Below, one piece after another: positions 6,874 through 64,000 of a stretch of 64,000 bases of DNA; the stretch's first letter is position 1; every line of letters starts with the position of its first letter. A model generated the notes under the pieces. The model saw nothing but the letters and a program-made list of their open reading frames with translations. It was not told where the DNA came from and did not search any database. Origin of the DNA: Arenicellales bacterium (lineage in GTDB: Bacteria > Pseudomonadota > Gammaproteobacteria > Arenicellales > Poriferihabitantaceae); NCBI GenBank assembly GCA_028285795.1, contig JAPYNL010000020.1, forward strand, positions 1,622 to 65,621. The letters are read 5' to 3'. A program made the translations under genes and the position numbers.

Positions 6874-8107
6874 GCGCTCCGGCTTTCCTGATATCCGCAT
6901 CGGGCATACGACTCGCGGAATTGGAGATGAGGGTGTCTGGCCCTCGTTTACGGATATCATGGCAGTCATCGTCATGATTTTCCTGATGGCACTGGCTGTC
7001 ATTATGGTGCAAAAACTGGATTTGTCCAGACAGTTGATGGCTACCCAGTTCAACCAGCAGGAAGCCGAGGAAGCGCGAGATGCCCTCCAGACGCAACTCG
7101 AGCTGATGCGTATTGAGAGTGACCGCCAGCAACGGGAAATACGCGACCAGCAGTCTCAGCTGGAAGGACTCCAATCTGAAGTTGTCAATCTCCAGTCCAG
7201 GCGTGATGACCTGACAAGCACAGCCGCGCAGCTTGCCCAGGAAAAATCAGAGATTGAGCTTCGAGTCGAAAGCCTTCTGGGTCGAGTCGAGAGCCTCCTT
7301 GAAATGGAAAGACAACTTGAAAAAGAAAATCTGGAGTCTGAAAAAAGGATCAGGGAGTTCCTTGCAGCCGAAAAAATTTCACAGGAGAAAGTTGAAACCC
7401 TGATTTTCGAAAATCAGAAACTGTTGGATCAGATCTCGGGTTTGGAACAGCAGTTATCGGATTTGGAACTGGCGTCTGCTGAAAGTATTCGCTCACTCAC
7501 TGAACAGCGATCAAGCCTTGAAGACAAGCTTGATACCGTGACCTTGCAGCTTGTCAGCGTACAACAGTTACTGGATCAATCCAGTCTAGTCAATCAGGAG
7601 TTGGAATCCGAGATCAGCAGAAGCCTGGCTGCCCAGAAACGCCAGGCAGAAGAATATCGGATAACGAGTGAGCAAATGGAAGCACTGGAGAACCTGATCA
7701 GACTCATGGAACTCAAAATCGTTGATCTCGAATCAGAGGCAAGCGCCTCAAATCAGCAATACAAGACCCTTCAGGATGAATATGAAATTCTGGATGAAAA
7801 ATATCGGGATCTTGTGCGGCCCGCACGAAGCGAAGCCGGGAAACAGGTGGCGTTGGTTTATTTTGATAAAATCGGCGCCGAATTGAACTACCGAATTCGC
7901 GAGCCGGATCAGGAAAGCGCCAGAACCGTCAGCCTGGCCGAGCTGAATGAAGTTCTGCAAGGTCTGAAAGAGCAATTGGGTCAGGAACTGTATGTGAGGA
8001 TCGTGATTCCTGAAAGCAGCACGCTGTCTCACCGCCAGGCATGGCTGTTTACCGATGAGGTTCTGAGAAAATACGACTATTACTACCAACCAGAGGCAAC
8101 GCCCTAG
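6866..8107 (+). CDS. MotB/ExbD-like single-pass membrane protein with a ~260-aa coiled coil and a divergent C-terminal domain
   Basis: ATG 6866 overlaps the upstream stop by 8 nt (ATGACTGA). The N-terminal WPSFTDIMAVIVMIFLMALAVIM resembles the MotB/ExbD plug-TM with a conserved Asp. A long heptad-rich Q/E/L region follows. The C-terminal ~90 aa lacks clear OmpA-type PG-binding motifs. Confidence 0.55.
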   Translation: MTERSGFPDIRIGHTTRGIGDEGVWPSFTDIMAVIVMIFLMALAVIMVQKLDLSRQLMATQFNQQEAEEARDALQTQLELMRIESDRQQREIRDQQSQLEGLQSEVVNLQSRRDDLTSTAAQLAQEKSEIELRVESLLGRVESLLEMERQLEKENLESEKRIREFLAAEKISQEKVETLIFENQKLLDQISGLEQQLSDLELASAESIRSLTEQRSSLEDKLDTVTLQLVSVQQLLDQSSLVNQELESEISRSLAAQKRQAEEYRITSEQMEALENLIRLMELKIVDLESEASASNQQYKTLQDEYEILDEKYRDLVRPARSEAGKQVALVYFDKIGAELNYRIREPDQESARTVSLAELNEVLQGLKEQLGQELYVRIVIPESSTLSHRQAWLFTDEVLRKYDYYYQPEATP

Positions 8108-8136
8108 CTCGTTATGCTGGCGTTTCATGAGAGACC

Positions 8137-10014
8137 ATGGGCTTTTCAGAACAGTTTGATGTGATCGTGATTGGTGCTGGGCATGCCGGTGTTGAAGCAG
8201 CCCTTGCATCGGCTCGTATGGGCTCCAGTACTCTGCTGATCACGCACAATATCGAAACCATTGGCCAGATGTCCTGCAATCCAGCCATCGGGGGTATTGG
8301 CAAGGGGCATATCGTCAAGGAAATTGATGCCCTGGGTGGCATCATGGCAACTGCCATTGATCATGCAGGAATTCATTTCAGAATCCTGAATTCTCGAAAG
8401 GGTCCTGCAGTCAGGGCGACACGTGCGCAAGCCGATCGTGCACTGTACAGGATGGTAATTCGACAAGCTGTTGATCATCAGCCGAACCTGTCCGTGTTTC
8501 AGCAGTCTGTTGATGATCTGATAATTACTGATGGCCGGATAAGCGGGGTTCTATCCCAACTCGGCATTCGTATCCATGCGAAATGCGTGGTGCTGACGGC
8601 CGGAACATTTTTAAATGGCAGGATCTTTGTCGGCATGGAGCAAAGTCAGGGAGGACGCGCAGGAGACCCGCCTTCTGTTGCGCTGGCTGAAAAACTGCAT
8701 GAATTACCGCTTGCCGCGAAACGCCTCAAAACAGGCACCCCACCGAGAATCGACGGCAAGACCATTGACTACAGCACGCTTGAAAAACAACCGGGAGATG
8801 ATCCCGTTCCGGTCTTCTCCCATCTGGGCAGGCCCGACGATCACCCTGAACAGGTGATTTGCCATATAGCGCACACCAATCCGGCAACTCATGACATCAT
8901 TCAGTCGGCCTTGCATCAATCGCCAATGTATGGAGGAATGATCGAAGGAACCGGCCCCCGCTACTGCCCTTCAATTGAAGACAAGGTGGTTCGGTTTGCC
9001 GATAAGCCGACTCACCAGATCTTTGTTGAACCTGAAGGATTGAATACGACCGAGGTCTATCCTAACGGAATCTCGACAAGCCTGCCGTTCGAGACACAAG
9101 TTGCCTTTGTGCGCTCGATCAAGGGCTTTGAACATGCTCGAATCACGCGGCCGGGCTATGCCATTGAATATGATTTTTTTGACCCGAGGGGGTTGAGGGG
9201 CTCGCTTGAAACGAAATGCGTCGAAGGGTTGTTTTTTGCAGGCCAGATCAATGGGACGACCGGCTATGAAGAGGCTGCGGGACAGGGACTGATTGCCGGA
9301 TTGAATGCGGCCAGGAAAATACGGGGGCTTGAGCCCTGGTGTCCGGCCCGCAATGAGGCCTACATCGGAGTCATGATTGATGACCTGATTACACAGGGAA
9401 CTCTGGAGCCCTACCGAATGTTTACTTCGCGTGCCGAATACCGATTGCAGTTACGCGAGGATAATGCCGATTTGCGGTTGACTGAAAAAGGCCATGAGCT
9501 CGGGCTGGTAGACGATTCAAGAATGAAGGTTTTTGCAAAAAAGCGTGACCGTCTGCATCAGGAAATTGATCGTTTTAAGCGGGTGCATCTGAAACCCGAT
9601 GAAGTCCGGGAAACGTTCGTCGAGAAGTTTGGTCAGCCACTGCTTCGCGAGACCAGTCTGTTTGATTTGTTACGCAGGCCCGAGGCAAATTACCGGGAAT
9701 TGATCGATATTGCGGGTCTGGAGACGCCGCTTGAGGATTTTGATATTGAGAAGCAACTGGAAATCCAGGCTCGCTATGATGGTTATATTGAACGTCAGGT
9801 TTCTGAAATCGAGCGCCTTGGACAAAGTCATGGCCTGATGATTCCACAGGACATGAACTATGCGGACGTGCACGGATTGTCCGCTGAAGTGACCGAAAAG
9901 CTCAATCAGGTTCGTCCCGAAACGATCGGCCAGGCGGCCCGGATTCCGGGAGTTACCCCGGCCGCAATCACGATACTGCTTGTTCACCTCGACAGGTTGG
10001 TCAGAGCCGCCTGA
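8137..10014 (+). CDS. mnmG: tRNA uridine 5-carboxymethylaminomethyl modification enzyme MnmG (GidA)
   Basis: 625 aa with an FAD motif ([14 protein letters not shown]). The sequence is GidA-like throughout ([35 protein letters not shown]). Confidence 0.96.
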
Positions 10015-10020
10015 TTATGA

Positions 10021-11376
10021 TCACGCTCTCAGTGTAACGAGTTCTTCGGCTGCGGTCGGATGAATGGCAACGGTATTGTCGAAGTCTGACTTGGTAGCCC
10101 CCATCCTGACAGCGACAGCAAAGCCCTGAATCATTTCATCGGCTCCTCGTCCGGCAACATGGCAACCTACAATTCGTTCATCCGGTCCCTCAACAATGAG
10201 TTTGACGAGGGTTCGCGGTTTATGCTCGCAAAGTGCAAAGTACATGTCGACAAAGGTGTTTCGATAAACCTTGATTGAATCCTTGCCGAAATGATCCATT
10301 GCAGCCGCCTCGGTCAACCCTACGGTGCCCACAGGTGGGTGGGAAAACACGACTGTCGGAATATTGGAATAATCCAGCCTGGCTTCTTTCTGTCCGCCAA
10401 AAACCCGATCGGAGAGTTTGCGTCCGGCGGCGATGGCAACAGGTGTCAACTGGGCTCGAGGGGTGACGTCACCCACTGCATAAATTCCGCTCTGAGCGGT
10501 ATTCTGGAACTGATCGGTATCAATGAAGCCCCGGTCATTGGGACTTAATCCGGCATTTTCGAGATTGAGGGATTGAGTATTGGGACGCCTTCCGATAGCC
10601 CAGATTACACAATCGAATCCCCCTCTGGCATTGCCTTCGGTATCTTCGTATTCAATGTTGCCGCGTTTACCGTCCAGTCTGGCAAGAGAAATATTTCGAA
10701 TGATTTCGATCCCGGATTCTTCCATATGCTCAAGAACGGTCTGCTGCAGGTCTGTATCGAATGCACCCAGCAACCGGTTTTTTCGCAAAGCCATGGTGAC
10801 TTGACTGCCAAGTCCATGCATCAGTCCAGCGAGTTCTGTCGCAATATAGCCGGAACCTACCACGAGCAGATTGGACGGCTGTTCTTCCAATTCAAAAAAG
10901 CCGTTGCTGTCGATGCCAAGTTCCGTGCCTTCAAGGTTCGGATTCGAAGGCTGTCCTCCGGTGGAAATCAGGACATGCTCAGCAGAGTAACGTTCTTCAT
11001 TGACTTCAACAGAATCAGGCGAGACAAAGCGTGCGACACCCTGTTTGACGTTCACTCCGGATTTTTCCAGGTTTCGGGCATAGATCCCATTCAGTCTATG
11101 TATGTAGACGTCTCTGGATGACTTGAGCTTGTGCCAGTCAAGATGGCCTGATGTGACGGGCATTCCATATTGATGAGCGAGGCTGACTGTTTCGTGGATT
11201 TGCGAGGCTGACCACATCACTTTTTTCGGAACACAGCCGACATTTACGCAAGTACCCCCAAGATTGCCGTTTTCAATCAGCAGGACATCGGCACCATACT
11301 CGGCAGCCCTTCGTGCCGAAGCGATGCCGCCGCTACCGCCTCCAATAACAATGTAGTCGTATTTCTCGGTATTCAT
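10021..11376 (-). CDS. gor: Glutathione-disulfide reductase
   Basis: Start trimmed to MNTEKYDYIVIGGGSGGIA (ATG at 11376), giving 451 aa. The redox-active site is GGTCVNVGCVPKK, and the C-terminus HPTAAEEL is typical of Gor. Confidence 0.9.
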   Translation of the reverse strand: MNTEKYDYIVIGGGSGGIASARRAAEYGADVLLIENGNLGGTCVNVGCVPKKVMWSASQIHETVSLAHQYGMPVTSGHLDWHKLKSSRDVYIHRLNGIYARNLEKSGVNVKQGVARFVSPDSVEVNEERYSAEHVLISTGGQPSNPNLEGTELGIDSNGFFELEEQPSNLLVVGSGYIATELAGLMHGLGSQVTMALRKNRLLGAFDTDLQQTVLEHMEESGIEIIRNISLARLDGKRGNIEYEDTEGNARGGFDCVIWAIGRRPNTQSLNLENAGLSPNDRGFIDTDQFQNTAQSGIYAVGDVTPRAQLTPVAIAAGRKLSDRVFGGQKEARLDYSNIPTVVFSHPPVGTVGLTEAAAMDHFGKDSIKVYRNTFVDMYFALCEHKPRTLVKLIVEGPDERIVGCHVAGRGADEMIQGFAVAVRMGATKSDFDNTVAIHPTAAEELVTLRA

Positions 11377-12405
11377 TCGATATTCCTGAAAGAATTGTTG
11401 ATTGCGAACTGTGTCAGGCACAGCCAGAATGGAAGTTTTCTGATCGATGATGCTGGATAATTGCTCGAGTGGGTATTTCAAAGTATAGCGGTTCGATCAG
11501 CAGTATGGAAAACGATTCATTTGAAAGCGCAAAAACCGCATGGATTCATCCCCTGTATTTTTCCATATCGGCATAATGACGGGGCCGGCAACGGAAGCCC
11601 TTGCATGGAGCAAAGCCAGGAATTACCGGCTTCTTCCATCAAGAAGAGGCTTGTCCAAAATCGACTGTCGAGCGTCAACTGCCTGAAACCATGAGCATGC
11701 CTGGATACAGGCCCCTGCCTTGTTTCGTGCATCGCCGTTCATTTCCGGTCTCCATACGGGTGCAGGGTCAGGTGACCGTACAGAGCAGGATATGCGGTCG
11801 GTGGTGGGTATACAATGGTGCAGCATCATGGTATTCCCTCTGCGGCTCCGGCGGGCATGACGGATCCCAAATGCCGGATGACCAGGCGGGCCATCAAAAA
11901 GGGATGACTGAACGACAGGGCACTGTGGCAGGAACCGGTCCTGCCCATGAGGTGGCTGGAATGCAGGGTTTCCTCAGCGGCTTCATCGGAAGGCCATGTT
12001 CTGGATAACGGCCTTGCTGGCGCTCTGCCGTGATTCACCCGGGACACCGGAATCTGCAAGAACGGTCTGGCTTTCGATGTCATTGAAGACGCATGCAGTT
12101 CATGGACAGGAACATTTTCCGGAGCCGGACAGACACTGGATTGCGTGCCGGCTGATTATTTCCTGTCCAGCAACAGCTGACTGAAGCACCGCGGAGAAAA
12201 ATACTCTGTCAGCAGGCAGAATGCCGGACTGATGGCCCATCTCATGAGGTATTTTCCGCAGCTGGATTTCTCCGATATGACCAGCCCGCCGAATCCGGAA
12301 TCAGTTGGGGTTATAATGGGTCAAGTATAATGGCGACGGAACGGGCTATAATTTTTGCAAGCATCCTGACTTGAAAAGCGGTCAGTTGCTTCGATTGGCT
12401 TCTAC

Positions 12406-13203
12406 ATGAGCAACCGGGTGCCTGGTTTTGCCAGATCGGACAACTTCAAGACACAGTTTCATATCTTGTCAATTAAAGAAATCATCGCATCAAGGAGAAC
12501 CAGCAAGGTTCTTGCCAAGTCGCCATTAGAGGCCGATTTTGACCAGGCTCTTCTTGAGTCTCTGGTCAATGCGGCAGCCTATGCACCGTTTCACTACATG
12601 GCCGCCAATTCCCATCGTGAAAAGCTTTCCGACAATGCCCCGGAACCATGGCGAATTTATATTCTGAATCGAACGATCTGCAGACAACTCAGAAAGTGGC
12701 TGATTGGCCGCAATGACAAGACAAAAGTAGCAGAAATGCTGGCTGCTGCGGATATGCTGTTGCAGGTAACCTGGTGTCCGACGACAGCGGACGAGCCAGC
12801 AGGGAATGCGGAGCCTGACGGTTTTGATGCGACCCAAACCAATATGGAACATATCGCTGCCACTGCTGCAGCGATTCAAAACATGATCCTGACTGCTACC
12901 GAGCACGAGATCCCGAACTACTGGTCAAGCGGAGGATCATTGCGAGAAAGGGAAACGTTTGACTTGCTCGGTATTCCCCATGACGAAATTTTACTGGGAT
13001 CCGTGTTCTTCTTCCCCAGAAATGCAGATCAGAATCAAAACGTGACCATGTTTCCGGGAAAAATGCGCGAGCGTCGCAGCTTTGACCGCACCTGGTGTCA
13101 CCGGATAGAAGGGTTGAACATGAATTCCAGCAGCAAGTCAACAGCTCAGAAAGTCACTACGACTGTACGCATGGGGCGGAATTCGAAAGTATCTATGGAG
13201 TAG
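12406..13203 (+). CDS. Nitroreductase-family protein
   Basis: 265 aa with an N-terminal RRTSKVL segment, AAAYAPFH, and a later AIQNMILTATEHEIPNYWSSGG segment typical of the nitroreductase fold. Specific function unknown. Confidence 0.6.
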   Translation: MSNRVPGFARSDNFKTQFHILSIKEIIASRRTSKVLAKSPLEADFDQALLESLVNAAAYAPFHYMAANSHREKLSDNAPEPWRIYILNRTICRQLRKWLIGRNDKTKVAEMLAAADMLLQVTWCPTTADEPAGNAEPDGFDATQTNMEHIAATAAAIQNMILTATEHEIPNYWSSGGSLRERETFDLLGIPHDEILLGSVFFFPRNADQNQNVTMFPGKMRERRSFDRTWCHRIEGLNMNSSSKSTAQKVTTTVRMGRNSKVSME

Positions 13204-58123: not shown

Positions 58124-58822
58124 GGAGTTGTCCTGTGCAATGTCAGTTTCTTTCCAAGCCTGGATAAATTATATCACTTGGGGCTTGGCTGTCAGGTCTG
58201 ATTCGGAAAACCCCATGCTGCTTATTTGACCACGATACCACATCCTTGAGCTTTAGGACCTATGGACATGGCCGGATAATGGCCGTTCTTGGGTCGCACT
58301 ACTTCAATTTTGACGTCAAGTCGAGTGGCCGGACCGCCTGCAGGCCGAATCCATCAGCCGTTGTCAGGCCTGGTTGCCAGTTCGGCTCATTCCGTTTTGC
58401 AGCTACGGGAATGGATGCCGGATGCAGCACCACTCTGGAACATGGGGCAAACCGCAATAAGTCCGCCTGCGAACATGCCGGATCAGGCTGGGCAACATGG
58501 AGTTGTACCCCGCATGACATGCGCTGAAACATGCGTCCGGCAAACCATGCAGGGTCATGGTCCGTACTCGACAGGAAAGAAGCAGTTCGACATGGTTCTT
58601 TTTCCGTCCTGCATGCAGGTGATGCTAATGGCTGTCGAGAGGAGTCTTCAAGGCACCCTAGCCATTGTTGTTGATCTTCGTCTAGGCGCAGCGGATCCTG
58701 GCTTTGCATTTGCAATAATCATCGGCATCAGCAGTTTCTCCATCTCTCTCGAAGTAGTTGCTCTGCGATTCAGTCCAATTAGCAGCATTGGCCGAAATGG
58801 AAACTGCCGGGCCGCTCCCGGA

Positions 58823-58858
58823 CAGGTTCAGGCACCCCTGCAGGGGTGCCTGAACCTG
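58823..58858. repeat. Perfect 36-nt palindrome (16-bp GC-rich stem, TGCA loop)
   Basis: CAGGTTCAGGCACCCCTG|CAGGGGTGCCTGAACCTG read directly, followed on the + strand by GTTCCCATTATTTTC. It lies in a region with no convincing CDS. Confidence 0.8.
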
Positions 58859-61800: not shown

Positions 61801-61993
61801 TCGTATGCCGGATATCGAGAGAGTGCGATGTACAAGTTTGTCGGTTAGGCTTCAAGAGATATCAAGAAGAAATCGCGGCGATGGCATTTAATTCGTGGTC
61901 AAGGAGCACTTCCACGATGCTGAAATTGCACTTATGTGGATAATATCCCGAGCGTGCATTCTACAAAGTTCAAACAATATTATTATTCTCGGA

Positions 61994-63184
61994 ATGGTGA
62001 TGACGAATAATCCGGTTTTCACGATATTTGTCGTGTGGCATCCATCGTATCGTGAAGGACAGGATATTGCTGACTCACTAAGTAGCCACTTCGTTGGGAA
62101 CCTCTATCAGAATATCGAAGACGATTGTCCAGTAAGCGTTCTTGAGCGTAGCCAAATCGTACCAGGTATAACTACTCCCTTGCCAATTGGCTGGAATGAC
62201 TCGGAATTTACTGCAGTCGTGGTTCTGACGGAGACGACTTTAGTTGAAGATGAGGAGTGGGTAGCGTATGTGCACATGATAGAAAAAGGCACCCAAGACC
62301 AAGGACTTTCATCTAGGCTTTTTCCAGTAGCAATGGATCGCAGAGGCCTTGAACTTGGGGTCTCGCAACAAGCTTTGCGGTGGGATGAATGGGTTGAGTC
62401 AATAGAAAACCCGATTCAACGACTCATTTCTGATCTTACCCATGAATTTTGTCGAATGCTCCGACATAAATTTGACCAACACCGATATTCCGATGGAGTA
62501 GACTCTGGCTTGGGGCACTATCTCAAGAAGATTAAGGTTTTCATAAGCCACTCGAAACACGATAAAGATGGAAAATCCCTTGGAGGTAGAATTCGTGACT
62601 GGATTCATAATGAGAGTTTGCTTGACAGCTTTTTTGACGTCTACGATATACCGCCAGGATTATCATTTGAGGATGTTTTGTTGCATGAGGTAGGGGATAG
62701 TGTGTTCCTGGCAGTAAACACAGATTCGTACTCTTCCCGAGAATGGTGCAGACGGGAGGTCATTGAAGCAAAACGCCGCCTGGTTCCAATCATCGTATTT
62801 GATTGTGTGCGAGATATGGTTCCCCGTGCAATGCCCTATTTGGGGAATGTTCCAGTCGTGCGTGTGGATCCAGATTTAAAGGGCCTGGAACTGACCGACC
62901 GTATCAAAATGGTCACAAGTTGTCTCCTTGATGAGGTTTTTCGAACCTGGTTGTGGTTTTGTCGGGTTGGTCCCGATGTTTCAGATTCTCCGGGCGTTTT
63001 GTTCACGCCAAGACCTCCAGAGTTGATTGAACTGGCAGCAGTACCGTTTTCAGGTGGTGAAACAGTTCAAACGATCGTATATCCCGATCCTTTATTGCCG
63101 GTGCATGAGGAACAACTGTTCAGAAAAATCGCACCGGAAGTGTCTTTGCAGACTTTGACAGATTGGCTCGAGGGTCAACCATGA
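61994..63184 (+). CDS. Two-domain TIR protein: an N-terminal TIR-like/flavodoxin-like domain, a canonical TIR domain and a C-terminal extension
   Basis: The central segment has TIR hallmarks: KVFISHSKHDKDG, DIPPGLSFEDVLLHEV and NTDSYSSREWCRREVIEAKR (candidate catalytic Glu), then PIIVFD. The N-terminal PVFTIFVVWHPSYREGQDIADSL looks like a second degenerate copy. The start (61994, 62000 or upstream GTG 61895) is uncertain. GC is lower than in neighbouring genes. Confidence 0.75.
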   Translation: MVMTNNPVFTIFVVWHPSYREGQDIADSLSSHFVGNLYQNIEDDCPVSVLERSQIVPGITTPLPIGWNDSEFTAVVVLTETTLVEDEEWVAYVHMIEKGTQDQGLSSRLFPVAMDRRGLELGVSQQALRWDEWVESIENPIQRLISDLTHEFCRMLRHKFDQHRYSDGVDSGLGHYLKKIKVFISHSKHDKDGKSLGGRIRDWIHNESLLDSFFDVYDIPPGLSFEDVLLHEVGDSVFLAVNTDSYSSREWCRREVIEAKRRLVPIIVFDCVRDMVPRAMPYLGNVPVVRVDPDLKGLELTDRIKMVTSCLLDEVFRTWLWFCRVGPDVSDSPGVLFTPRPPELIELAAVPFSGGETVQTIVYPDPLLPVHEEQLFRKIAPEVSLQTLTDWLEGQP

Positions 63185-64000
63185 ACCTGTCCAATAGTGA
63201 TTATTCTCCTTCGGTCGGAATTTCGATTTCGGAGAGCCCGGACTTGAAATACCTCGGAATGAACCAAGGGCATTTACGCAATGCCATGAATCACATGGCA
63301 TTAAAGCTACTTGCTTCAGGTGTCAGTTTGGCCTACGGCGGGGATTTGCGAAAAGATGGATTCACCCGGGTTCTAGCCGAACTGGTGGGACGTTATCGAG
63401 GTCATCCACGGCACTCCGGAACTATAGTCATAACAGACTATCTCGCTTGGCCGGTGCACATCAGGCTCACGCAAGACCAGCTCGACACTTTCTTTAAGGA
63501 TCATCAGCCGACCGTACATCTTGTCTTGCTTTCCCTGGATGGTGAAAGACTTGCTCTGGAGAAACGAGAGGAGCTCTCTACATACGAACCACGAGAGGAT
63601 GAATGGACGACAGGACTAACTGCAATGCGAAACTCAATGCTTGCGGACATCCATGCCCGGGTAGTAATGGGTGGTAGAGTTGAGGGATACAAGGGAAAAA
63701 TGCCGGGCATTGCCGAAGAAACGCATCTTTCACTTGAAGCCAAACAACCTGTTTACGTATTGGGCGGATTTGGCGGATGCGCTCGCGATATTGCAGAGAC
63801 TGTCGGTCTTGCTGACCCCTGGGCGGGTTCCCGTGATCATTGGCAGGGTCGACAGTGTTTCAAGGAGTATTCAGTGTCTGACTTTAATAATGGCCTTACC
63901 AATGAAGAAAACGTGGCCTTGGCACATACTCCCCATATTCAAAAGGCAGCCAGCCTCGTATCTCGCGGACTTAGTCATGTGCTCAACAACAAAAATAGCC
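63181..64000 (+). CDS. SLOG-superfamily (LOG/DprA/ThsA-SLOG-like) protein, 3' end outside the window
   Basis: Not in the ORF track. Hand translation gives 273 uninterrupted codons from ATG 63181, which overlaps the TIR gene stop (ATGA). Rossmannoid SLOG-like signatures are VGISISESPD, SLAYGGDLRKDGFT, VVMGGRVEGYKGKMPG and PVYVLGGFGGCARDIAE. Confidence 0.7.
   Translation, partial: MNLSNSDYSPSVGISISESPDLKYLGMNQGHLRNAMNHMALKLLASGVSLAYGGDLRKDGFTRVLAELVGRYRGHPRHSGTIVITDYLAWPVHIRLTQDQLDTFFKDHQPTVHLVLLSLDGERLALEKREELSTYEPREDEWTTGLTAMRNSMLADIHARVVMGGRVEGYKGKMPGIAEETHLSLEAKQPVYVLGGFGGCARDIAETVGLADPWAGSRDHWQGRQCFKEYSVSDFNNGLTNEENVALAHTPHIQKAASLVSRGLSHVLNNKNS

Follow-up and report, generated by a model that had tools for sequence, protein, structure and literature searches.

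A putative three-gene Thoeris-family cassette with its TIR/SLOG effector split in two genes, in an Arenicellales bacterium

What is the function of a TIR protein and a SLOG protein whose genes overlap by four nucleotides and lie at the very end of the available sequence? The two genes (gene 1 and gene 2) are at the 3' end of a 64,000-nucleotide stretch from an Arenicellales bacterium (GenBank assembly GCA_028285795.1, contig JAPYNL010000020.1, positions 1,622 to 65,621), which we call the window. An earlier interpretation, made from the nucleotides and their translations without database searches (the sequence-only reading), had proposed that the pair works by Thoeris-like logic. We think that the locus is probably a Thoeris-family cassette of three genes, acquired horizontally, for signalling against phage, and that the TIR/SLOG effector of this cassette is split in two genes. 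(We put the probability of this reading at roughly 60%.) The window holds two of the cassette's genes and, at most, the first bases of the third.

Three genes with overlapping frames

Gene 1 contains a TIR core, as had been claimed. Both of the motifs that had been pointed out (VFISHSKHD and SYSSREWCRREVIEA) are present, Pfam's TIR_2 family matches at E = 3e-9 (37.8 bits; the cut-off is 28), and the candidate catalytic glutamate, E255, is invariant among 26 homologues of gene 1 from split pairs. The open reading frame of gene 1 extends upstream to a GTG at 61895, but its homologues, including a 99%-identical protein (P0121), begin at the ATG at 61994. An exact-sequence look-up of gene 1 gave no match, and we reached the locus through homologues; those of full length are 51-68% identical. 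From these, the protein has a conserved N-terminal region (amino acids 1-175), the TIR domain (about 180-295), and a conserved C-terminal region (about 296-396). The sequence-only reading was right about the C-terminal region of about 100 amino acids, but the N-terminal region of about 175 amino acids, although conserved, found no support as the additional TIR-like domain that had been proposed. Pfam finds no second TIR stretch in gene 1 at E<=1, and when residues 1-140 were compared with the protein's own TIR domain using hhalign, the probability was 0.13.

Gene 2 is indeed a SLOG protein. Pfam's LD_cluster2 family (SLOG cluster2, PF18163) matches at E = 1.5e-69 (235 bits; the cut-off is 25.3), and the match within the window spans model positions 6-223 of 264. 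The motifs AYGGDLR and VLGGFGGCARDIAE are present, and the motifs YGGD (the GxD/E signature), PGIAEE, and GGFGGC are conserved across the family, along with many invariant polar residues. As had been noted, gene 2 has no stop codon inside the window. Nevertheless, it is not a long protein that is cut by the window: 273 residues are inside, the full length of a 99%-identical homologue is 275 amino acids, and other homologues have 270-285. In two of the contigs described below (L002 and L089), the stop codon lies 6-8 nucleotides beyond the window's end, or two codons out, so the effector domain that was expected downstream of the SLOG domain is not there. Neither gene 1 nor gene 2 has a match to SIR2 in Pfam or in PADLOC, which agrees with the claim that no SIR2 domain precedes the SLOG domain.

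The stop codon of gene 1 (TGA, 63182-63184) and the start codon of gene 2 (ATG, 63181-63183) form the ATGA overlap that had been described. This overlap is predicted to couple the translation of the two genes.

What lies past the end of the window? Four contigs (L001, L002, L089, and L090) are 99.4-99.6% identical to the window and extend beyond it. In all of them, a third gene (gene 3, of 198-206 amino acids) overlaps the 3' end of gene 2. Gene 3 belongs to Pfam's ThsB_TIR family (E = 1.3e-19; 70.9 bits with a cut-off of 21.2), and no NCBIfam model matched it. At least 95% of sequences conserve the glutamate at its catalytic position (in DWEI). Annotations differ in where gene 3 starts: in L002 it is at the ATG equivalent to 63977, which gives 206 amino acids, and in L089 it is at the ATG equivalent to 64001, which gives 198 amino acids and an 8-nucleotide overlap with gene 2. 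(The latter ATG arises from a lysine-to-methionine difference in L089; the window is compatible with either start.) Because these near-identical contigs extend past the window, we can state that the unit comprises three genes, encoding a 396-amino-acid TIR protein, a 275-amino-acid SLOG protein, and a 198-amino-acid ThsB_TIR protein, that each frame overlaps the next, and that the SLOG protein has no effector domain of its own. In L089, the full cassette spans 10001-12604. The features of the locus are collected in Table 1.

Table 1. Positions in the window of the cassette's genes and of features within or beside them
Feature	Position	Strand	Basis
Gene 1, TIR protein, 396 aa	61994..63184	+	Open reading frame, Pfam, homologues
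TIR_2 core of gene 1 (aa 182-271)	62537..62806	+	Pfam
Candidate catalytic glutamate E255 of gene 1	62756-62758	+	Codon GAG read from the sequence
ATGA stop/start overlap of gene 1 and gene 2	63181..63184	+	Read from the sequence
Gene 2, stand-alone SLOG cluster2 protein	63181..64000 (part inside the window)	+	Pfam, homologues
Possible 5' end of gene 3	63977..64000	+	ATG 63977 in the frame of gene 3
Intergenic region between mrcA (PBP1A) and gene 1	61801..61993	+	Lowest GC content of the locus, 42.5%

Split and fused forms of the TIR–SLOG protein

Genes 1 and 2 have relatives in which they are joined. In a profile search with the SLOG alignment over 1.84 billion representative proteins, we found 2,317 family representatives, with 1,616 of them at E<=1e-10. 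Among the 150 best representatives, 25 are much longer than gene 2 (650-740 amino acids), with the SLOG domain at the C-terminus. We tested six long representatives with Pfam, and all six have TIR_2 at about amino acids 180-290 as well as LD_cluster2. Similarly, in a homologue search with one of these fusions, the best 120 matches all carry both domains. The fused proteins occur in Bacillus cereus (a TIR_2–LD_cluster2 protein of 680 amino acids, P0395), B. toyonensis, Priestia, Paenibacillus, Lysinibacillus, Gloeothece, and others. Patatin and TPR repeats are further fusion partners of this SLOG family.

The two proteins from the window align with the fused proteins from end to end. Amino acids 1-391 of gene 1 align with the first 390 or so residues (29-41% identity), and amino acids 12-267 of the SLOG protein align with the last 270 or so (30-48% identity). 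Identity to the Bacillus-type fusions is about 29-34%. The break between gene 1 and gene 2 falls at the inter-domain linker of the fused homologues. Furthermore, the TIR glutamate and the SLOG motifs (YGGD, PG..EE, and G.FGGC) are kept in at least 90% of the 120 fused proteins as well as in the window's proteins. Because of this end-to-end collinearity and these shared conserved residues, genes 1 and 2 are best described as a single protein that is divided at the linker, with translational coupling keeping its parts together.

Other genomes have the split form too. We scanned one genome per species, which gave 177 relatives of the SLOG gene, and examined 80 of the loci. Among these 80 loci, the split form is the rule. 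It is also found on plasmids of Klebsiella pneumoniae, Pseudomonas veronii, Rhizobium, Methylorubrum, and Rhodococcus.

We also read six neighbourhoods of fused genes, and all six contain separate TIR genes. The fused gene of Paenibacillus polymyxa has two ThsB_TIR and two TIR_2 genes around it, a Priestia plasmid has two TIR genes, and another locus (L098) has three TIR genes near the fused gene. In one metagenomic contig, a ThsB_TIR gene is directly upstream. Elsewhere, a 547-amino-acid TIR_2 protein is encoded upstream of the fused gene in one locus and a TIR-WD40 protein (with sensor-like repeats) in another. Given that every neighbourhood we read has separate TIR genes, there is a recurrent design: a TIR–SLOG protein, or a split pair, together with one or more separate and variable TIR proteins.

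Beside one of the fused genes (L093, 1533-4970), there is an operon of ThsB_TIR, Nmad2, MazG_C, and UDG-like genes, and another ThsB_TIR gene comes after it. Genes for HipA and an integrase are close by. This operon may be a second nucleotide-centred conflict system.

What is new in the window, then, is a type IX-like effector in the form of two separately encoded and coupled subunits. (Type IX is described below. Earlier work had already described the fused architecture as well as the logic and the domain families.) The natural split could be convenient in biochemical experiments, where the SLOG subunit (sensing) and the TIR subunit (catalytic) could be studied apart.

Proposed mechanism and comparison with known Thoeris types

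The arrangement resembles that of type I Thoeris. In type I, the effector ThsA begins with an NAD+-consuming domain (SIR2; NAD+ is nicotinamide adenine dinucleotide) and ends with a SLOG sensor, and the signal is made by a separate TIR protein, ThsB. The split effector would have the layout of ThsA with TIR replacing SIR2; that is, the cassette shares the logic and the order of type I, but SIR2 is absent, the TIR domain is the proposed NADase, and the effector is in two pieces. We favour this canonical logic because the order of domains in the fusions is the same as in ThsA, because the SLOG family has Patatin as another partner, because there are variable additional TIR genes, and because the glutamate is conserved in both TIR proteins.

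We propose that gene 3, which is of the ThsB type, would sense infection and convert NAD+ into a signal derived from ADP-ribose, probably an isomer of cyclic ADP-ribose (cADPR). The SLOG protein encoded by gene 2 would bind this signal. The TIR protein encoded by gene 1, in complex with the signal-bound SLOG protein, would then degrade NAD+, which would stop growth (abortive infection). We infer the roles of signal maker and sensor, the nature of the signal, and the toxic depletion of NAD+ from the domains and from their relatives. If so, the sequence-only reading was correct about the Thoeris-like logic, which fits the domains, the fused homologues, and the ThsB-type third gene. But its suggestion that gene 1 is the ThsB-like signal maker is probably wrong: the ThsB-type TIR protein is gene 3, and genes 1 and 2 are collinear with an effector.

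Other defence systems provide analogies. TIR-SAVED and the CARF–TIR protein Cat1 each couple a domain that senses nucleotides to a TIR NADase, which becomes active when the ligand drives assembly, as we propose for genes 1 and 2. TIR-STING is also a sensor-coupled TIR NADase. These are analogies only, as the sensor folds of these systems (SAVED, CARF, and STING) and their signal makers (CD-NTase and Cas10) differ from those of the window's cassette.

A closer comparison is with type IX, which is among the eleven types of Thoeris that have been defined (Yirmiya et al., bioRxiv 10.64898/2025.12.03.692087, December 2025). The type IX effector, ThsJ, is annotated as "TIR and SLOG" in Table S2 of that study. 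The type IX system of Bacillus cereus VD021 protected B. subtilis, and the Paenibacillus macerans system (IMG gene 2639430607) did not (bioRxiv 10.64898/2025.12.03.692087). Like the window's cassette, type IX has a ThsB-type TIR gene beside an effector that combines TIR and SLOG, and we found fused TIR_2–SLOG cluster2 proteins that are collinear with genes 1 and 2 in the genera of both tested systems. The difference is that the effector of type IX is one protein, while the window has two genes with the ATGA overlap. Gene 3 itself is 41-43% identical (E = 2e-30 and 2e-25) to the TIR domains of ThsB from two Thoeris systems of type VI, both of which defended against phage (bioRxiv 10.64898/2025.12.03.692087). 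Type VI signals with 2'cADPR, which was produced by three type VI TIR proteins.

Might the SLOG protein itself be the effector instead? According to later studies, type III Thoeris (van den Berg et al. 2024) has several TIR proteins that accompany a "SLOG domain-containing effector", and its signalling is uncharacterised. The type III system of Pseudomonas aeruginosa has the SLOG protein ThcA (or ThsD) and four TIR proteins, ThcB1-4. By analogy, genes 1 and 3 could be parallel ThsB-type signal makers, and the SLOG protein could be the effector, either as an enzyme of the LOG/PpnN kind or as a growth arrester like YpsA. This is the main rival to the split-effector reading, and we consider it unlikely.

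Several observations fit the type III-style explanation. The window's cassette, like type III, has several TIR proteins beside a small SLOG-only protein and no other effector. The ThcB4 model (375 amino acids, with a central TIR domain) has an overall layout like that of gene 1, and ThcB4 is the best NCBIfam match of gene 1, although at a sub-threshold score (E = 4.5e-10; 38.9 bits with a cut-off of 220). Two of the type III TIR proteins, judging by eye from the sequences, are presumably ThsB_TIR-like, as is gene 3. Some loci have the SLOG gene with a single TIR gene, and both combinations occur; 10 of the 80 loci have the SLOG gene alone. In three loci from Latescibacterota, the SLOG protein is fused to ThsB_TIR. 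The SLOG protein has many invariant polar residues. SLOG proteins have been predicted to act either as sensors or as enzymes that process nucleotides, and overproduction of YpsA, a stand-alone SLOG protein, arrests cell division (PMC6459960).

On the other hand, gene 1 and the SLOG protein form one polypeptide in much of the family, with separate TIR genes alongside, which is the pattern of a sensor fused to its effector. Patatin is another fusion partner of this SLOG family. Where the LOG-type motif GGxGTxxE has its glutamate, the family has Arg-Asp (from an alignment read by eye). And many of the partial loci are visibly decayed. Type III also differs in its details: ThcA's model has 184 positions and represents a different SLOG family from the 275-amino-acid LD_cluster2 protein here (the score of gene 2 against ThcA is 17.2 bits, with a cut-off of 110), type III has four TIR genes instead of two, and its TIR domains are weakly similar to that of gene 1. 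We suggest that type III and type IX might be two forms of one design. The claim that the arrangement is non-canonical and largely uncharacterised now holds only in part: type III (in 2024) and type IX have been described and have been shown to defend, but neither mechanism has been solved.

Turning back to the split-effector reading, several findings weigh against it. First, although the type IX ThsB made 3'cADPR on infection, 3'cADPR failed to trigger the toxicity of the effector (bioRxiv 10.64898/2025.12.03.692087), so a simple model in which the signal binds to SLOG may be incomplete. Second, our identification of the fused TIR_2–LD_cluster2 protein with ThsJ (IMG gene 2538300522) is a tentative one, by annotation, genera, and gene layout. 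Also, when we compared the fused loci that we fetched with the published ThsB domains, we found distant matches only (23-34% identity). (Plasmid homologues of the ThsB from B. cereus VD021 were in records without a fused gene.) Third, the window's proteins are far from reaching the NCBIfam equivalog cut-offs for ThcA and ThcB4, and none of the PADLOC 2.0 models match the SLOG protein. The profile searches that had been proposed as a check succeeded in that Pfam identified TIR_2 and LD_cluster2, but PADLOC gave a weak match of gene 1 to ThsB1 (3.7e-8) and nothing for gene 2.

Fourth, in the three Latescibacterota loci (L080, L084, and L087, at about 7950-9350), the SLOG cluster2 domain is joined to ThsB_TIR, in proteins of 466-475 amino acids, and not to the TIR_2 domain. 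(In L080, gene 1 is upstream of this fusion and a further ThsB_TIR gene, of 158 amino acids, is downstream.) Fifth, in the window's genome, the cassette is by itself between mrcA and a Calx-beta gene, which are housekeeping-type neighbours, and is outside of any defence island.

Sixth, predicted structures for the two proteins were poor. We ran AlphaFold2 (AF2) with alignments of 23 sequences for the SLOG protein and 26 for gene 1. The confidence score (predicted local distance difference test, pLDDT) was 59 for the SLOG protein and 63.5 for gene 1, whose model is good for residues 180-396 only. With such models, structural support is limited to the generic fold. In Foldseek, the nearest structures to the SLOG model were the N-terminal domains of TRPM channels, with weak similarity (E of about 1e-3). 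These domains are SLOG-like, and in TRPM2 they bind ADP-ribose. For the gene 1 model, the matches were limited to generic folds (flavodoxin, REC, or TIR). When the SLOG alignment was used as a profile against the sequences in the PDB, no meaningful match came up. Structure prediction, another check that had been proposed, gave weak consistency with the expected folds.

Seventh, gene 1 is broken in the nearest relative of the window's cassette (L003-L008; 85% identity for SLOG). There, gene 1 is truncated at its 5' end within the TIR domain and is frameshifted (for instance, at 1390-1937 of L003), and the SLOG gene and gene 3 are intact. The SLOG protein of this relative was seen on 12 contigs from several samples. 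We considered whether the SLOG protein and gene 3 might be the functional core of the system. This idea is weakened by the remnant of gene 1, whose ratio of nonsynonymous to synonymous substitution rates (dN/dS) is 0.09. Because this ratio is so low, the loss of gene 1 appears to be recent. The loss does not decide between the split-effector reading and the type III-like rival.

Distribution, mobility and selection

An intact trio of gene 1, SLOG, and gene 3 is present in 32 of the 80 loci, and in 70 of the 80 the SLOG gene still adjoins gene 1 or gene 3 or a remnant of one of them. Most of the hosts are metagenome-assembled genomes, and the groups that they represent are very far apart: Alpha- and Gammaproteobacteria, Rhodothermales, Acidobacteriota, Binatia, Gemmatimonadota, Chloroflexota, Latescibacterota, Acidimicrobiia, and Entotheonella. 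A Nitrosopumilaceae archaeon (L073) has the full trio and extra ThsB-like matches; it belongs to the ammonia-oxidising archaea. Among cultured organisms, the SLOG gene is present in Rhizobium mongolense and Burkholderia sp. USMB20. Across the hosts of L009-L088, which represent at least a dozen distant lineages, the SLOG protein is 47-69% identical to the window's.

We take Poriferihabitaceae, Porisulfidus, Entotheonella, and several of the sample tags to be sponge- or coral-associated. It is striking that the cassette is spread among distant sponge-associated lineages, and the distribution suggests repeated transfer between phyla within one habitat. A tentative and rather speculative extension is that the two-chain effector responds to a TIR-made signal that is not yet identified, and that the split cassette is a shared immune module. 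This module would have moved repeatedly between sponge microbes that are only distantly related, an ammonia-oxidising archaeon among them. If a shared sponge immune module is real, then many "eukaryotic-like" TIR proteins of symbionts would be phage-defence enzymes rather than host-interaction factors.

A quite different interpretation of the same distribution is that the TIR proteins are "eukaryotic-like" symbiosis factors that interfere with the TIR/TLR signalling of the sponge host, with the SLOG protein as an accessory and no role in phage defence. The closest relatives are indeed overwhelmingly from metagenome-assembled genomes, several with names that we take to be sponge-associated. Also, TIR has been listed among the eukaryotic-like host-interaction domains of sponge symbionts (PMC7848895). 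But the cassette is found in non-symbionts (on plasmids of K. pneumoniae and other proteobacteria, and in Rhizobium and Burkholderia), and the fused form is in Bacillus, Paenibacillus, and cyanobacteria. Because of these hosts and because of the defence-type neighbours (restriction-modification, AIPR, and Schlafen-like genes and transposases), a host-interaction role is very unlikely, the least likely of the explanations that we consider. The conservation of the catalytic-position glutamate in both TIR proteins also fits enzymes better than adaptor mimics, and we noticed no sign of export, though no signal-peptide predictor was run. A caution for sponge-microbiome genomics is that not every TIR-domain protein should be read as a host-interaction factor.

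Near the loci, the commonest neighbours include type I restriction-modification genes (7 HsdS, 4 HsdR, and 2 HsdM proteins). Additional TIR genes, AIPR and Schlafen-like genes, and genes for transposases or integrases also belong to this group. We looked at the closest neighbours in about 65 loci and found no fourth conserved gene. In the nearest relative (L003-L008), the cassette is at a different genomic place, adjoining a fragment of a Phage_integrase gene. Given the variable and defence-type neighbours, the decay of partner genes, and this relocated relative with its integrase fragment, the cassette appears to be an accessory, mobile module.

The window is consistent with this as well. The upstream neighbour of gene 1 is, as the sequence-only reading stated, mrcA, which encodes an 809-amino-acid PBP1A with Transgly, PCB_OB, and Transpeptidase domains. 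Its observation that the GC (guanine plus cytosine) content is low also held up, in the upstream spacer and in gene 1, where it is 46.3%. The average over 1.2-kb segments is 52.1 +/- 2.1%, and a value as low as that of gene 1 occurs in only about 1% of these segments. Together with the variable and mobile neighbourhoods of the relatives, this agrees with the view that the module was acquired.

The spacer between mrcA and gene 1 is presumed to contain the promoter and to be the 5' boundary of the acquired cassette. We found no promoter-like site in the equivalent region of the 99.6%-identical contig L089, and the spacer has no match in Rfam. A promoter scan of the whole region of L089 gave 4 sites, with 4.3 expected by chance. 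Overall, the scans for promoters and terminators were at chance level, except for a long hairpin after gene 3. This is an inverted repeat with 21-nucleotide arms (95% complementary) and a 6-nucleotide loop, at 12702-12749 of L089 and about 100 bp after gene 3. It sits between gene 3 and the convergent Calx-beta gene, outside of the window, and probably either acts as a bidirectional terminator or represents a repeat element. We found no direct repeats flanking the cassette.

The clearest example of the cassette on a mobile element is plasmid pKpnB199 of K. pneumoniae (L096, NZ_MK552108.1, 109904-112742), where the split cassette is flanked by ISNCY and IS3 transposases. Identity to the window is 44.5% for gene 1, 47.7% for SLOG, and 51% for gene 3. 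This plasmid is a convenient cultured source of the split cassette. (It is a conjugative IncFIB/IncHI1B plasmid from a blood isolate. The ThsB-type gene is divergently oriented, and a gene annotated as an "S-4TM family putative pore-forming effector" is near the cassette.)

Is the cassette maintained by selection for defence, or is it selfish or decaying? It could be an addiction module, similar to a toxin–antitoxin system, in which SLOG restrains a TIR NADase, or it could be a decaying cassette without a current function. In support of this, pseudogenes are frequent: fragments of the partner genes are common, an intact trio is missing from 48 of the 80 loci, and the nearest relative has a broken gene 1. 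The cassette also occurs on plasmids rich in insertion sequences, and translational coupling is typical of toxin–antitoxin pairs. Nevertheless, all three frames are intact in the window's lineage, and the dN/dS ratio of the SLOG gene is 0.22 and that of gene 3 is 0.16. Also, this explanation does not account for the additional sensor-type TIR genes or for the TIR–SLOG fusion, and high turnover is usual for defence genes as well. We consider selfishness or decay to be improbable, more so than the type III-like rival.

Some relatives of the SLOG gene have no TIR partner and lie inside type I restriction-modification operons (L064, 6741-9038; L066, 8001-10602; and L049). In one of these loci, SLOG is fused to Schlafen/AlbA_2 and HATPase_c_4 domains, in a protein of 765 amino acids. 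In another, an AIPR abortive-infection gene comes after the SLOG gene.

Finally, there is a small difference upstream of the cassette. A segment of about 169 bp in the window (58659-58826) is missing from the 99.6%-identical contig L089. The alignment blocks on either side of this gap overlap by 12 nucleotides in L089, which suggests a short direct repeat at the junction, and the segment ends at a perfect 36-nucleotide palindrome (CAGGTTCAGGCACCCCTG/CAGGGGTGCCTGAACCTG, 58823-58858). This region (58658-58858), which lies between a LysR-type gene and mrcA, could be a small mobile or recombination-prone element.

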